Assembly: GCA_965237875.1 (NCBI GenBank)
Contig: CBDEGP010000001.1
Location: 1,051,355-1,115,354, forward strand
Source of the DNA: Dehalococcoidia bacterium
GTDB lineage: Bacteria > Chloroflexota > Dehalococcoidia > Lucifugimonadales > JAGWBF01
Direction: 5' to 3'
DNA: 64,000 nucleotides
Each line of letters opens with the position of its first letter. The stretch's first letter is position 1. The notes under the pieces are model-generated. The model saw only the letters and a program-made list of their open reading frames with translations. It was not told the origin of the DNA and searched no databases. The translations under genes were made by a program, and so were the position numbers. Shown in pieces: positions 60,606 through 64,000 of this stretch.

Positions 60606-63056
60606 CTAGTTAAGCTCGACCACCGTGACCGAGTCTGCACGGAGCTCCGGGTCCGGCCCGAAGGACTTGACCAGAGGGTGGCGGACCAGGAGCTCCCTTA
60701 TAGCGGTGCGAAGGGCCCCGGAGCCCGTTCCGTGAAGTATGCGCACCGTGGACAGGCCCGCCAGCGTGGCGTCGTCCAGGAAGCCGTCAACACGGGATGA
60801 CGCCTCTTCGACTCGCATCCCTCGAAGGCTGATCTCCCTCTCGACCTTTGGCCGTTGCGGCCTCGAGTAACGGACGCTGGCCGGTGAGCCGGTCCTGGAC
60901 TGCGCCGGCCTGTCCAGCTGATGCACCGGCAGCCGGGCCCGCATTGAGCCCAGCAGGACCTCAATGGTGTCCCCCTCGGGTGGGTTCAGCGTTTCCACCG
61001 GCTGGGGCACGCCCTTGACGTACACCCGGTCGCCGGGTTTGAGTGAACCGATCCAATGACCCCTGGGTGTGGCCGGCGGCGCCCACCTGGGAGCTTCAAG
61101 CTCGGCCCGCACGTCTCCGATTATCTTCGAGGCCTCTTCAAACTCAGGGACAGGTTCGGGTTCCGCCCCGGTCTGTTCGGATGTTGCGGGAACGGAAGGC
61201 GGAGGATGGACGAGCCGTCTCTCCAATGCCCTCTCCACTCCGCGCAGCTTGGAAGCGACCTCGTCGACCTGCCGCCTCAGGCGGAAGCGGGCCTCTTCCA
61301 GCATCACTGCCTCGCGGTTCTGGAGATTGGTGAGCTTCTCGTCCAGTTGGGCCTGCTTCTCTGTCGCCTCGCGGAGAGCTTTGTCGGCGTCGTTGGACAG
61401 TTGGGCCGCCAGCCTCCGCTCCTCATGCAACTCCTTCAGTATACCTTCCGTCTCACGATGGACGGGAGCCAGGAAACTCCTGGCTTGCTCTACGGTTGCG
61501 TCCTCCAGGCCCAGGCGTGAGGCGATTGCCAGGGCGTAGCTGCTTCCCGGAAGTCCCACGGTCAGCTTATAGGTTGGGGCCAGGGTTTGCGGGTCCAGTT
61601 CCACCGAGGCGTTGGCCATCCCATCGTGCTCCTGGACGAAGGCGGCCACGTCCCTCTGGTGGGTGGTGGCTGCAACCCTTGCTCCTTTGTCGAAGAAGCT
61701 GAGCAGAATGGCTTTCGCAAGAGCGGCGCCCTCTTCGGGATCGGTGCTCGATCCCAGCTCGTCGATAAGCACAAGAGAACTGGGCGTCGCCTGCTCCATG
61801 ATGGACTTGAGGTTGGTTATGTGCGAGCTGAAAGTGGACAGCGAACGTTGGATGCTCTGCTGGTCGCCGATGTCCACGAACACGCGGTCGAACATGCTTG
61901 TCTGCGCCTCTTTGGCCGGGACCTGAAGTCCCGCCTGGGCCATGAGCGCCAGCAGCCCCATGGTCTTCAGGGCCACCGTCTTGCCTCCGGCGTTGGGGCC
62001 CGTAATAAGCAGGAGGGACCAGGGGTCTCCCAAGTGGACGTTCAGAGGCACGACCTCACCCTCGAGGAGTGGATGTCGTGCATCCACCAGTTTTAGTCGA
62101 TGAGGAACGCCGTGCCCGGAGGCGGCCAGGGTCACCTGCACACCGTTCAGCCGGATGGCGTAGCGACCCTTGGCCAGGGCCAGGTCCAGCCGCGCCAGGA
62201 GGTCCGAGGCAAGTTGTATGTCGTCCGCGCGGTACTCCACCTGGACGGATAGCGTCCTCAGAATCCTCTCTTCCTCCCGCTCCTGGGCCAGCTGGAACTC
62301 CCGCCATTGGTTGCCCAGGGGCACCGACGCCATCGGTTCCATGAACAGGGTGGCGCCGCTGTCGGATACATCGTGGACGATGCCGTTCAAGCGGTGTTTC
62401 ATCTCGGTCTTGACCAGCAGGACCATCCTGTTGTTGCGCTGAGTGATGATGGGTTCCTGAAGGATTCCCTGGCGTTCCAGCCGCCGTTTCGCACGCTCCA
62501 TGGAGTCCATCAGCCGACGGTGTGCGGCCCTGGTCTGCTGCCGCAGCTCTCCCAGTAATGGGCTGGCGCCGTCCAGGACCTCGCCCAATGTGCCAACCGT
62601 TTTGGCGATGTCCCGCTCGAGGTCCTCCATCACGGGCATCTCTTGGGTCATGGTGCGGAGCCGAGGGACGTCATGCTGCCTGTGGAGACTGTACCGCGCC
62701 TGGCGCGCAGCCCGAAGAGTCGCGCCCAGGTCCCTTAGCTCTGCCCCTGATAGGACTCCGCCGAGGGCAGCGCGCTCCAAAGCCTGTCCCACGTCGACGG
62801 CGCCGGAGAGGTCGGGTTCCGACCCCCGCTCCAGCAATAGCCGGGCCTCGGAAGTCTCCTCCTGGCGCATGGAGACGACCATCGGGTCGGACGAGGGCAA
62901 CAGGGACAGGGCAAGGACCCGGGCCGGGTCGAAGGTCGTGCAGTCGGCAAGCCGCCGGAGTATCAGCGGGAATTCCAGGAGCTCCAGGGCCGGGTCGTCG
63001 GCGCCGGGCCCGTTGGTGGCGGGGAGGCTGTCGGAGTTGGAGGCGACGTCGGTCAA
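60606..63056 (-). CDS. mutS2: endonuclease MutS2 (MutS ATPase + C-terminal Smr domain)
   Basis: Walker A ITGPNAGGKTVALKT and an Smr tail ISLRGMRVEEA...ILHGTGSGALR. The TTG start overlaps the upstream stop as TTGA. Confidence 0.92.
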   Translation of the reverse strand: MTDVASNSDSLPATNGPGADDPALELLEFPLILRRLADCTTFDPARVLALSLLPSSDPMVVSMRQEETSEARLLLERGSEPDLSGAVDVGQALERAALGGVLSGAELRDLGATLRAARQARYSLHRQHDVPRLRTMTQEMPVMEDLERDIAKTVGTLGEVLDGASPLLGELRQQTRAAHRRLMDSMERAKRRLERQGILQEPIITQRNNRMVLLVKTEMKHRLNGIVHDVSDSGATLFMEPMASVPLGNQWREFQLAQEREEERILRTLSVQVEYRADDIQLASDLLARLDLALAKGRYAIRLNGVQVTLAASGHGVPHRLKLVDARHPLLEGEVVPLNVHLGDPWSLLLITGPNAGGKTVALKTMGLLALMAQAGLQVPAKEAQTSMFDRVFVDIGDQQSIQRSLSTFSSHITNLKSIMEQATPSSLVLIDELGSSTDPEEGAALAKAILLSFFDKGARVAATTHQRDVAAFVQEHDGMANASVELDPQTLAPTYKLTVGLPGSSYALAIASRLGLEDATVEQARSFLAPVHRETEGILKELHEERRLAAQLSNDADKALREATEKQAQLDEKLTNLQNREAVMLEEARFRLRRQVDEVASKLRGVERALERRLVHPPPSVPATSEQTGAEPEPVPEFEEASKIIGDVRAELEAPRWAPPATPRGHWIGSLKPGDRVYVKGVPQPVETLNPPEGDTIEVLLGSMRARLPVHQLDRPAQSRTGSPASVRYSRPQRPKVEREISLRGMRVEEASSRVDGFLDDATLAGLSTVRILHGTGSGALRTAIRELLVRHPLVKSFGPDPELRADSVTVVELN

Positions 63057-63484
63057 GGCACTCCTAACGCATAGTCGGCGTGGCGGACGGTAAACTCAAG
63101 CCTGGACCTTGAGGGGTCGTATTCCATATACCAGTGGTTGATGACATCCCGTCCCAGCAGGGACGGGAGTCCCCGATTCCGTTCGTGCGGCTCTGCAACC
63201 AGCAGATCGACCGAATAGAATATCGTCTGGGGCGTATCCGCAAAAGAGAGGATGGCCGCTTCTCGGAAGTACGGTGAGCTGCCGCCTACGCCCCTGAAGG
63301 TCTGTCTGTCCCTAAGTTGACTGAAGGGAACGTGGGCTTTTTCCGCATCCAACGGATGCAGACACGTACTGTCCGCCCCTGTGTCGAGCAAGAAAAGCGT
63401 CTCTACACTGACTTGGAAGCGTGGAAAATTGACTATACCTTTAACGTAGGGCCTTCCTCGTTTGTCGAACCTGCCGACGATCAT
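63053..63484 (-). CDS. retropepsin-like (clan AA) aspartic protease
   Basis: 143 aa with the catalytic LFLLDTGADSTCL and the SLLGRDVINHW flap/dimer motif. It has 4-nt overlaps with both neighbours. Confidence 0.8.
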   Translation of the reverse strand: MIVGRFDKRGRPYVKGIVNFPRFQVSVETLFLLDTGADSTCLHPLDAEKAHVPFSQLRDRQTFRGVGGSSPYFREAAILSFADTPQTIFYSVDLLVAEPHERNRGLPSLLGRDVINHWYMEYDPSRSRLEFTVRHADYALGVP

Positions 63485-63792
63485 AAAATCAGCACAGGAG
63501 GGTCGGAATCCAGGAACTCAATCACGACCTCTCCGGCGCGTATCCCCTGATTCTCCACTTTCTCGATGACTTCGTCTGAGGAATCGCCTATGACCAGCAC
63601 GCCATCCTTTCCCATCGCCACCCACTTATCGGGGTGTTTCTCCGTCAAGGACTCCCGTTCGTTCATCATGCGGTCTATGGTCCTCTGGAACTGTTCCATC
63701 CTTTCCTGCAAGGCAGCAACCCCGCCCATCTCTTCAATCATCGCACAGGTGTCTTCGATGAGTTGTTTCTTCACGCTCGGCGTCAAAGCCAC
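63481..63792 (-). CDS. small DUF5678-like protein with coiled-coil N-terminus
   Basis: 103 aa. The KWVAMGKDGVLVIGDSSDEVIEKV pattern resembles DUF5678. GTG start with GGAGG 6 nt upstream. The family assignment is from memory only. Confidence 0.55.
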   Translation of the reverse strand: MALTPSVKKQLIEDTCAMIEEMGGVAALQERMEQFQRTIDRMMNERESLTEKHPDKWVAMGKDGVLVIGDSSDEVIEKVENQGIRAGEVVIEFLDSDPPVLIL

Positions 63793-64000
63793 GTTCAGCC
63801 TCCGGCCCCTTAGTCCAATGCTAAAAGTGTATCACATGCCTGTCGTCGATATCGCCGGAAGCATGGCCAGGCGTCTCCCGACGATGCGGCAGCTATGGGG
63901 TCCGTCAAAGTGAACCGGCCTAATTGCTCAACTATACATGGCCATATACAGGACATGCCGCATGAGGCTTGCAGTATTGTCATAATCATTGATATTCTCT

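Follow-up and report, generated by a model that had tools for sequence, protein, structure and literature searches.

A DUF5678 and retropepsin-like protease gene pair between acVLRF1 and mutS2 of a Dehalococcoidia bacterium: a candidate mobile protease-inhibitor cassette

Free-standing bacterial retropepsins are almost unstudied. Related enzymes include the retroviral proteases, which are excised from polyproteins, and APRc (ApRick) of Rickettsia conorii (structures 5c9b, 5c9d and 5c9f), which is anchored in the membrane and is not known to have a DUF5678 partner. The HIV-1 protease is inhibited by its own upstream transframe/p6* peptide. For the DUF5678 family, we found no paper describing it. 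PDC-M08 of PADLOC, a candidate system of two genes with a small retropepsin-like protease as component B, is one of 145 phage-defence candidates that were obtained through "guilt by embedding" (Payne et al., bioRxiv 10.1101/2024.01.29.577857). Here we describe a locus of a Dehalococcoidia bacterium in which a retropepsin-like protease gene follows a DUF5678 gene and precedes mutS2. Its features are given in Table 1 in the numbering of the window, that is, the whole stretch of 64,000 nucleotides that was analysed.

Table 1. Features of the gene pair and the adjoining DNA, in window numbering
Feature	Position	Strand	Basis and remarks
DUF5678 partner gene, 103 aa	63481..63792	(-)	ORF list; GTG start
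Retropepsin-like aspartic protease gene, 143 aa	63053..63484	(-)	ORF list; ATG start
mutS2, 816 aa	60606..63056	(-)	ORF list; TTG start; gene 3' of cassette
Partner-gene leader with Shine-Dalgarno GGAGG	63793..63812	(-)	Read from sequence
Upstream motif TGTGATACACTTTTAGCATTGGAC	63813..63837	(-)	Near-identical in 4 pair-carrying same-genus genomes
Lower-GC intergenic DNA	63838..64000	.	Composition; runs on to ~64047 past window

The gene structure described in the earlier note was confirmed from the ORF list and the sequence. On the minus strand, tcat at 63481-63484 reads ATGA, a 4-nt overlap of the partner stop and the protease start, and tcaa at 63053-63056 reads TTGA, so that the protease stop overlaps the TTG of mutS2. 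The quoted motifs are also present in the translations, namely KWVAMGKDGVLVIGDSSDEV in the partner and, in the protease, DTGA (residues 34-37) and LLGRD (residues 109-113). The GGAGG of the partner gene (63799-63803) lies 6 nt before the GTG and is kept in 4 same-genus genomes; direct reading of the sequence revealed no Shine-Dalgarno-like sequence for the protease ATG. The TTG of mutS2 is the sole in-frame ATG/GTG/TTG codon 5' of the region that encodes the conserved N-terminus of MutS2. The codon is kept in 5/5 genomes of the genus, with AGGAG or AGGGG 4 nt upstream, and this Shine-Dalgarno sequence sits within the final codons of the protease gene. The mutS2 product matched TIGR01069 of NCBIfam at 734 bits (cut-off 400), and carries MutS_V (E 1.6e-34) and C-terminal Smr (E 8.7e-19) domains.

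Profile searches bore out the assignment of the protease to the retropepsin-like enzymes of clan AA, with scores above the cut-offs of the Pfam families PF13650 (Asp_protease_2; 30.5 bits, cut-off 24.3) and PF00077 (RVP; 22.7 bits, cut-off 20.7), and a score under that of PF13975 (26.6 bits, cut-off 28.2). The proposed "TIGR03698-type" label did not hold, as the protease had no NCBIfam match at E <= 1, whether to TIGR03698 (clan_AA_DTGF), TIGR02281 (clan_AA_DTGA) or any other model. Across the 38 aligned sequences, D34, T35, G36, G68, L110 and G111 are invariant (38/38), A37, G65, G67 and R112 are at least 90% conserved, and the DTG, the GG of the flap and LLG show no variation. We take these to be the catalytic Asp-Thr/Ser-Gly, the glycine-rich flap and the downstream G-R-D/N-type motif. 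The AF2 model of the protease (pLDDT 92.3, pTM 0.86) yielded 42 PDB matches at E <= 0.001 in Foldseek, and among the matches listed all are retropepsins (APRc, FIV, HIV, SIV, RSV, EIAV and HTLV). The best fold match was APRc 5c9f (E 2e-6, TM 0.63 by target), and the FIV protease matched with a TM of 0.66 and 27% identity. A profile search with the protease likewise recovered ApRick (E 1e-6) and FIV protease (E 2.4e-6). A single-lobe retropepsin fold is thus predicted, and model and conservation together predict a catalytically intact dimeric enzyme. The single-lobe fold and the DTG active site are common to this protein, APRc and the retroviral proteases compared (FIV, HIV-1/2, RSV, EIAV and HTLV), at an identity of merely 17-27%. 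In contrast to them, the window protease is a free-standing cytoplasmic protein of 143 residues with its own partner gene. The same genome holds nine other small retropepsin-like ORFs; five were scanned, and 5/5 resemble TIGR03698, with 37-53 bits, below the cut-off of 57.35.

The small partner protein matched Pfam PF18929 (DUF5678) over residues 49-93 with 25.7 bits (cut-off 23.2, E 1e-5), in agreement with the similarity suggested earlier, as did 35/38 of its aligned homologues. Its AF2 model (pLDDT 89.8) begins with long helices at residues 5-21 and 24-52, the "coiled-coil N-terminus" of the earlier note. The DUF5678 domain that follows is small, with a beta-beta-alpha-beta arrangement, and leads into a conserved tail at the C-terminus. 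The tail ends in ...PPVLIL-stop, and nearly all homologues finish in ...LIL; L103, W57 and P54 are conserved in at least 90% of the aligned homologues. No clear structural match to the partner fold was found. The nearest ESM Atlas clusters bear PF18929 but score 0.86-0.88 and constitute a lead only. The partner displayed no HTH, RHH or AbrB-type Pfam match at E <= 1, and since it has no recognisable DNA-binding domain, autoregulation of the classical type II kind is unsupported.

The two genes were found to travel together. A survey of ~47 loci, drawn from relatives and from species-representative genomes, revealed a DUF5678-like gene preceding the protease in every one, so the co-occurrence that had been suggested as a check is constant and pairing is obligate for this protease. 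At 16/19 protease places in 30 relatives, excluding the window's own, a DUF5678-like match lies immediately upstream on the same strand, and the remaining 3 have a weaker DUF5678-like ORF at the same position. At 29/29 protease-holding species-representative loci, the end of the partner gene lies at most 15 nt from where the protease gene begins. Pfam-wide, the pairing is not absolute: among 18 DUF5678 matches in a sample of 100 further genomes from the phylum, 6 precede a PF13650 match, 7 fall within open frames of 551-575 aa and 5 are small ORFs without a protease match. No fused partner-protease forms were found with this query.

The distribution of the pair is patchy. The protease occurs in 14/31 genomes, with up to 5 copies in a single genome, and its neighbours vary, including metabolic, restriction-modification, Fic, Abi_2, HEPN, PIN and HigB-like genes; many copies are flanked by ordinary metabolic or transport genes. 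Latescibacterota copies are nested within Dehalococcoidia copies in the tree (support 99/90). At five loci the protease is frameshifted or truncated while the partner is intact; no locus showed the opposite. Two genomes of the same genus (G000 and G003) are 88-92% identical at both cassette ends, but identity drops to 45-73% in the partner domain and the body of the protease. As judged from these alignments, the cassette is a mosaic within the genus, in which the interacting parts have been swapped as an allele. No plasmid or phage copies of the module were found. On the strength of these gene comparisons, the pair is a self-contained, horizontally mobile two-gene module.

We modelled two protease chains with one partner chain, alongside three controls, as the earlier note had recommended for the pair. 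The complex scored 0.83 (runs 0.82-0.84) versus 0.35 for the best of the 3 controls, and the runs share at least 94% of contacts, with a partner pLDDT of at least 88. The 0.83 mark is attained by 116/157 solved complexes and 2/215 mismatched pairs, counts that apply only roughly here because the alignments were made by us and three chains were used, unlike in the calibration of the tool. Binding of the partner to the protease dimer is thus supported by a model that stood well above its controls. In this model both protease copies have a pLDDT of 91 and the partner contacts D34 of each. Its contacts on the second copy comprise only residues 34, 36-39, 41, 63-66, 70, 95 and 109, which are active site and flap, and the partner side of the interface includes residues 99-103. 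The placement of the tail in the cleft is read from these interface residue lists, because the tool gives no contact pairs for the tail. As the model sets the ...LIL tail at both catalytic aspartates, a role as inhibitor or antitoxin is suggested, and the partner probably plugs the protease active site.

Based on this model, we propose that the partner would wrap one protomer of the protease dimer while its free C-terminus (...PPxLIL-COOH) occupies the catalytic cleft and lies on both aspartates and one flap. The tail would act as a built-in, product-like inhibitor, and the partner would resemble an antitoxin in its role. If the partner were released or lost, the protease would become free to cut cellular or phage targets, and the overall action may be akin to that of an addiction or abortive-infection module. 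The arrangement recalls HIV-1 p6*, in which a segment encoded just 5' of the protease also has a hydrophobic free C-terminus in the active site: here ...LIL is encoded directly before the protease start, and the modelled interface includes the tail and both catalytic aspartates. The window pair differs in consisting of separate genes, so that processing is not needed.

The pair had been called toxin-antitoxin-like, and much of the description stands. As in type II systems, a small gene precedes that of an enzyme and overlaps it by 4 nt, and the active site is covered in the predicted complex. The module is conserved and coupled, it is mobile and occurs patchily in multiple copies, its enzyme has decayed at some loci that keep an intact partner, and other toxin-antitoxin modules are co-located. 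The part that does not fit is the partner, which has no DNA-binding domain; the putative toxin, moreover, would be an aspartic protease, for which we found no description as a toxin of such systems in the literature on retropepsin-like proteases. Distant relatives of the pair are listed in PADLOC as PDC-M08. PDC-M08B profiles match 23/38 aligned proteases (best E 6.9e-8), and PDC-M08A matches 1/38 partners (E 0.0025). The window protease matches PDC-M08B weakly (E 0.0079, 14.2 bits), and the window partner has no PADLOC match. Eco57I or type ISP restriction-modification genes immediately precede three related loci, whereas the window copy sits in a ribosome-rescue gene pair and not in a defence system; PDC-M08 itself is a candidate only.

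The DNA around the pair is also distinct in composition. A composition scan gave a GC content of 0.51-0.55 over ~63046-64045 versus 0.61-0.70 in mutS2. The AT-rich DNA reported beyond 63.9 kb therefore does have a lower GC content, but the dip is modest and also spans the pair together with the 255-nt intergenic region. The suspicion of a further accessory region near the window end proved right: just outside the window lie a MazE/AbrB-PIN toxin-antitoxin pair (64048-64685 in window numbering), transcribed divergently from the cassette, and a Zeta/AAA_33-like gene. The upstream motif may serve the cassette as an extended -10-type promoter or as an operator, and the promoter region of the cassette probably now drives mutS2 too. 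A consensus scan found no sigma-70 site on the minus strand.

The position of the pair admits more than one explanation. acVLRF1 is a Vms1-like release factor, MutS2 is a collision sensor, and acVLRF1-mutS2 is a conserved ribosome-rescue gene pair. Among relatives, 16/20 mutS2 loci have acVLRF1 on the same strand, upstream of mutS2. The earlier note had offered two readings, a protease-gated link to MutS2 and a selfish two-gene cassette in the mutS2 leader. In a gated ribosome-rescue or stress module, the protease would cooperate with or target MutS2, acVLRF1 or stalled-ribosome products, or its dose would be set by operon translation, and the cassette would have been recruited to the operon for that reason. 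The cassette does lie inside a conserved rescue gene pair, the TTGA overlap and the Shine-Dalgarno sequence are kept in 4/4 pair-carrying same-genus genomes, and two distinct pair lineages, those of genus g1 and of genome G011, stand 5' of mutS2. We nevertheless regard such a module as very unlikely. Adjacency to mutS2 is rare rather than the rule (4 loci of ~47, besides the window's own), 15/19 protease loci of relatives lie elsewhere in the genome, away from mutS2, and 27/29 species-representative loci have neither mutS2 nor acVLRF1 within 5 kb. In 8 relatives acVLRF1 abuts mutS2 directly, without cargo, and in other genera the same gap houses unrelated genes (a BglII-type restriction-modification system, PIN, HicB or RCC1-repeat genes). 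The same-genus genome G004 has lost the pair and retains mutS2 and the upstream motif TGTGATACACTTTTAGCATTGGAC, fused directly to a protease remnant of the last 22 codons. In G011, which is nested among genomes without a pair at mutS2, the pair stands ~270 nt away from mutS2, with a protease that is cut short by a TAA. The patchiness of the pair, the G004 deletion and the GC dip over the cassette favour the cassette alternative. Since acVLRF1 is the usual neighbour, the gap gathers varied cargo and G004 lost the pair, the coupling to mutS2 is best read as a by-product of insertion. We propose that the gap is an insertion hot spot shared with other toxin-antitoxin modules. The mutS2-adjacent pairs form three clades in the tree, and well-supported branches require at least two origins; without a genuine hot spot, two independent captures 5' of mutS2 would be a coincidence that has no explanation. 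The two lineages could instead have been captured between acVLRF1 and MutS2 for a function as a translation-stress switch. Coupled translation would then set the ratio of inhibitor to protease, and during mass stalling, for example upon phage takeover, the protease would slip its tail-plug inhibitor and attack components of translation or rescue. This would be a novel type of abortive response, based on a protease and tied to ribosome quality control. We give this idea little credence.

Another alternative is a benign, host-serving processing protease, with DUF5678 as its dedicated substrate, as a regulator, or as a folding or assembly partner in the manner of a pro-domain-like chaperone. The tail in the cleft would then be a product complex, and the pair would be neither toxic, selfish nor defensive. 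The absence of a DNA-binding domain in the partner, the metabolic and transport genes around many copies and the lack of a strong PADLOC match for the window copy all agree with it, and a tail modelled in the active site suits a product as well as an inhibitor. Such a role sits poorly with the patchy, multi-copy distribution across phyla, with repeated decay of the protease and never of the partner alone, with allele replacement of the interacting parts within one genus, and with co-location with toxin-antitoxin and restriction-modification genes here and at several loci. Moreover, the partner C-terminus is encoded as a free end, and therefore no cleavage is required to make the tail. We consider a benign protease unlikely, and hold it probable, if by no means assured, that the pair is an autonomous mobile protease-inhibitor cassette, inserted at acVLRF1-mutS2 and without a dedicated MutS2 function.

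A mobile protease-inhibitor cassette of this kind would have implications beyond the locus. The pair gains a concrete mechanism proposal, in which the conserved free C-terminus of the partner plugs the catalytic cleft, and in population-genetic terms it bears the marks of a module for addiction or defence, namely asymmetric decay, allele swapping and inter-phylum transfer. If confirmed, an aspartic protease would join the toxin and effector enzymes, and a product-mimic tail the modes of neutralisation. A tempting but wrong inference, that of a MutS2-linked protease, is also removed.

The linkage of acVLRF1 and mutS2 was noticed in passing and may be the more interesting result. Its conservation bears on nascent-chain release after ribosome splitting in bacteria without RqcH.

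The three genes at this locus overlap one another as the earlier note had proposed: the ORF list and the sequence confirm a coupled layout in which the partner gene overlaps the protease gene in ATGA and the protease stop overlaps the TTG start of mutS2 in TTGA. The domain calls of that note also hold, with the partner matching Pfam DUF5678 at 25.7 bits (cut-off 23.2) and the protease matching both Asp_protease_2 (30.5, cut-off 24.3) and RVP (22.7, cut-off 20.7). Its 'TIGR03698-type' label fails, since the protease has no NCBIfam match at E <= 1. The mutS2 product is MutS2 by NCBIfam TIGR01069 (734 bits), and PHROGs returned nothing under E 0.05. The partner gene carries GGAGG 6 nt ahead of its GTG, no Shine-Dalgarno-like sequence was read before the protease ATG, and AGGAG lies 4 nt upstream of the mutS2 TTG, within the final protease codons. 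This TTG is the only in-frame standard start ahead of the conserved MutS2 N-terminus and is kept in five same-genus genomes. Comparison within the genus revealed an indel just past it that is 12 nt long and in frame, which argues that the stretch after the TTG is coding. The protease lies in the -1 frame relative to the partner gene. A programmed -1 frameshift joining the two, in the style of gag-pro, was considered and rejected, as the junction lacks a canonical slippery heptamer and some relatives show gaps of 1-13 nt in place of the overlap.

Features of the locus and of related loci. G numbers are genomes (G000, own genome; G001-G004, same genus; others, relatives or sampled genomes) and L numbers individual loci; L002 is own-genome DNA running past the window end; "gap" is the interval between acVLRF1 (a Vms1-like release factor) and mutS2
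Feature	Position or locus	Strand	Details
DUF5678 partner gene	63481-63792	minus	103 aa, GTG start (ORF list and sequence)
Retropepsin-like protease gene	63053-63484	minus	143 aa, ATG start (ORF list and sequence)
mutS2	60606-63056	minus	816 aa, TTG start (ORF list and sequence)
MazE/AbrB-type antitoxin and PIN toxin	L002 5403-6040 = window 64048-64685, just outside the window	plus	77 aa and 138 aa; divergent from cassette
AAA_33 / Zeta_toxin-like P-loop protein	L002 6488-7066, outside the window	minus	192 aa; between PIN module and acVLRF1
acVLRF1	L002 7202-7957 (G000:C1:1117201-1117956), beyond window end		PF18859, 103.7 bits
Gap cargo	G009 (L071)		BglII-type endonuclease and N6/N4 DNA methylase
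Gap cargo	G007 (L065)		PIN gene and small partner
Gap cargo	G017 (L074)		HicB antitoxin
Gap cargo	G014 (L076)		RCC1-repeat and dockerin-domain genes
Gap cargo	G011		membrane protein and DUF5678-protease pair
Gap cargo	G002		pair alone
Gap cargo	G001, G003		pair and MazE/AbrB-PIN module
Gap cargo	G000		pair, MazE/AbrB-PIN module and Zeta/AAA_33-like gene
Pair neighbour	L080, L081, L097		Eco57I or type ISP restriction-modification
Pair neighbour	L084		SNF2-PLD gene with patatin
Pair neighbour	L085		HEPN
Pair neighbour	L093, L099, L103		Fic
Pair neighbour	L106		Abi_2 and Uma2
Pair neighbour	L105		HigB-like with HTH gene
Pair neighbour	L104		GIY-YIG
Ordinary pair neighbours			MFS transporters, amidase and GreA, enolase-superfamily genes, PEP carboxylase
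Other own-genome Asp_protease_2 places	L111-L119, e.g. C1:951457, C2:1060287, C2:519499, C2:479881
Long-frame DUF5678 matches	G212:C138, G190:C1, G201:C10, G168:C9, G084:C10, G156:C107, G228:C12

The presence of both genes was surveyed in 31 genomes (30 relatives and the own genome). The protease occurred in 14 of them, at 20 places, and the partner in 13, at 18 places. At 16 of the 19 protease places outside the own genome, a partner match lies directly upstream on the same strand, and at the remaining three (two in G022, one in G029) that position is taken by a weaker DUF5678-like ORF. The apparently solitary partner of another relative, G012, is followed by a 32-codon protease remnant. Scanning one genome per species yielded 31 loci, with MAG labels of Dehalococcoidia (26), Latescibacterota or Latescibacteria (4), and Alphaproteobacteria (1, a 29-residue fragment); in all 29 loci with more than a protease fragment, the partner ends at most 15 nt from the protease start. 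PF18929 was matched by 35 of the 38 aligned partners. Fused partner-protease forms were absent among 139 near-length hits (longest listed 171 aa), as they were among proteins of 252-2000 aa, although this absence is weak evidence. Across the whole Pfam family, the link between DUF5678 and protease is weaker than at these loci: 100 further genomes sampled from the phylum gave 18 DUF5678 hits, six of which precede a PF13650 hit, seven of which lie within open frames of 551-575 aa, and five of which are small ORFs without a protease match. The long-frame matches, from seven genomes, are weak (20-30 bits), and none of them adjoins a PF13650 match. They represent either a different domain architecture or spurious hits.

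The protease displays the hallmarks of a retropepsin. Residues D34, T35, G36, G68, L110, and G111 are invariant in all 38 aligned proteases, which points to selection on catalysis. All matches listed for the structure model (pLDDT 92.3) were retropepsins, led by APRc (5c9f, E 2e-6) and the FIV protease (TM 0.66 by target, 27% identity), and a PDB sequence profile search agrees with this identity. A single-protein search of the own genome found no second copy of this protease; the Pfam-profile search revealed nine further, more distant retropepsin-like ORFs. The own genome and G035 both show an expansion of retropepsin-like genes, with 10 and 17 Asp_protease_2 profile matches, respectively. PF18929 occurs in the own genome at this locus only. 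ORFs of 74-175 aa were resolved at six of the nine other places, none of them with a DUF5678-like gene upstream. Five of these other ORFs were compared with NCBIfam models, and all five resemble TIGR03698, at 37-53 bits, under the cut-off of 57.35.

The partner proteins nearly all stop at the same point (...PPxLIL-stop), with conservation of 90% or more at L103, W57, and P54. The model of the partner (pLDDT 89.8) starts with two long helices, continues as a small beta-beta-alpha-beta domain, and ends in a C-terminal tail. This fold is unmatched by a Foldseek search of the PDB (best E 0.64), a wide VIA-align search (best Z 4.2), and a PDB profile search (best E 0.13), a result that does not imply novelty of the fold. 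A complex of three chains, two copies of the protease and one of the partner, was predicted from self-supplied alignments and scored 0.83 (runs of 0.82, 0.83, and 0.84), versus 0.35 for the best of three controls. In a calibration set up otherwise than this three-chain prediction, 116 of 157 solved complexes attained this score mark, as did 2 of 215 mismatched pairs. The runs share at least 94% of contacts, with a partner pLDDT of at least 88. Collectively, the three-chain model supports binding of the partner to the protease.

In the model, the helices and domain of the partner are seated on one protomer, and the partner interface takes in residues 99-103. Contacts with the second protomer are limited to residues 34, 36-39, 41, 63-66, 70, 95, and 109, which correspond to the catalytic site and flap. 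From these residue lists, we infer that the free C-terminal tail of the partner would reach into the substrate cleft and lie between the catalytic aspartates of both protomers, where it could act as a product-like inhibitor of the protease. HIV-1 protease has an inhibitor of its own in the C-terminus of the transframe peptide encoded upstream of it, and the likeness between the two systems would be an upstream-encoded C-terminus placed in the protease cleft. Most likely, the DUF5678 partner uses its C-terminal tail to restrain the retropepsin, and the two may operate as a toxin-antitoxin-like or abortive-infection-like module.

Close relatives carry the pair patchily, some of them in several copies (G022 shows five protease places, three with strong partner hits). 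Its neighbours vary between loci, from ordinary genes to genes of defence or mobile elements. Latescibacterota pairs (L080, L081, L083, L105) display 58-64% identity to the window protease, and two pairs from this phylum lie directly behind Eco57I-type restriction-modification genes. In the concatenated-pair tree, the Latescibacterota copies entered (L080, L081, L083) are nested in Dehalococcoidia copies with support of 99/90, and this nesting indicates transfer of the pair between phyla. At five loci (L033, L049, L105, L107, L108), the protease is frameshifted, internally deleted, or truncated beside an intact partner; an intact protease without a partner ORF was found at none of about 47 distinct loci. 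A tblastn search detected no copies on plasmids or phages. In its behaviour, the pair resembles a mobile module of the addiction or defence type.

Among known systems, the pair is a distant relative of PDC-M08, a PADLOC candidate. The PDC-M08B profiles match 23 of the 38 proteases, the window protease at E 0.0079 only, and the PDC-M08A profile matches one of the 38 partners. PDC candidates are described as the product of 'guilt by embedding' (bioRxiv 10.1101/2024.01.29.577857). Our literature searches returned only incidental mention of DUF5678, and nothing on PDC-M08 by name, on retropepsin-like proteases joined with toxin-antitoxin systems, or under the name acVLRF1. Four elements are new here: a model that puts the partner tail in the cleft, a decay that strikes the protease and spares the partner, the putative allele replacement, and the insertion history.

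The DNA upstream of mutS2 was compared at 20 mutS2 loci in 19 relatives. acVLRF1 (PF18859) lies upstream on the same strand in 16 of the 20 loci; it directly adjoins mutS2 in eight of these (G018, G008, G012, G005, G010, G016, G022, G015), and the gap, where present, holds variable cargo. This interval looks like an insertion hot spot. Adjoining the cassette is a VapBC-like module, the MazE/AbrB-PIN pair, with relatives in G001, G003, and G004, and the AAA_33 / Zeta_toxin-like gene occurs in the own genome only, among five of the genus. GC content is 0.51-0.55 over the cassette, versus 0.61-0.70 in mutS2.

A single ancestral insertion before mutS2, common to the genus of G000-G003 and to G011, was rejected, as the pair tree and the MutS2 tree are both against it. 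In the former, the five mutS2-adjacent pairs split into three clades (G000 with G002; G001 with G003; G011 with non-adjacent copies, 100/97), and the well-supported branches force at least two origins at mutS2. In the latter, G011 lies inside a clade of 12 genomes with 98% support, and the remaining 11 have no pair at mutS2. Two independent captures upstream of mutS2 would be the most economical reading; a less likely account is an early insertion, with allele replacement and many losses afterwards. Two captures are better explained by a hot spot than by a functional tie, with a small residue of doubt. The earlier suggestion of a selfish cassette in the mutS2 leader is supported. The competing suggestion of a protease-gated MutS2 module is not supported, given that the pair is deleted and mutS2 is kept in G004.

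The G004 deletion (L060 480-800, G004:C60) runs from just past the conserved upstream motif to approximately protease codon 119. The genome retains this motif, a 22-codon protease remnant, the Shine-Dalgarno sequence, and the mutS2 TTG, with the motif joined to the remnant, which still overlaps the TTG. As G004 lost the pair and kept mutS2, the pair is dispensable for mutS2. The 5′ region of the cassette is plausibly a promoter of the extended -10 type and has probably come to serve mutS2. The conserved upstream motif, which spans window 63813-63837, has a putative promoter role; a promoter and terminator scan of the minus strand detected neither a sigma-70 consensus site nor a terminator.

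Comparison of window 63053-63837 with L061 and L062 shows that, within the genus, the cassette is also a mosaic. Two stretches, one at each cassette end, show 88-92% identity between G000 and G003, the first from the upstream motif through approximately partner codon 28 and the second covering the last ~40 protease codons, versus only 45-73% across the partner domain and protease body. G000 and G002 are 74-93% identical throughout. In the MutS2 tree, G002 is nearer to G001 and G003 than G000 is, a position by which the G001/G003 allele looks like an in-place replacement of interacting parts. The mosaic as a whole points to allele replacement, or diversifying co-evolution, of these parts.

The acVLRF1-mutS2 linkage reaches beyond the family of the own genome. 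In a class-wide sample of 121 genomes, acVLRF1 was found in 40, and in 12 of the 39 other than the own genome it abuts mutS2 on the same strand in reverse order (mutS2 first); these 12 span 10 families. The own-genome protein carries the GGxSQ motif as GGTSQ (residues 155-159), a family motif according to Burroughs and Aravind (2019, PMC6514570), a paper from whose main text MutS is absent. A search of the own genome (94.7% complete) detected no RqcH (NFACT_N, PF05833). Together, the linkage across families, the GGTSQ motif, and the RqcH result suggest that acVLRF1 is a Vms1-like hydrolase acting on the products of MutS2 ribosome splitting. If true, this would place a Vms1-like release step after such splitting. 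In G004, the intact acVLRF1 lies on another contig, and G004:C60 also holds a duplicated stretch of 36 codons from the 3′ end of acVLRF1, fused to a ResIII-like fragment.
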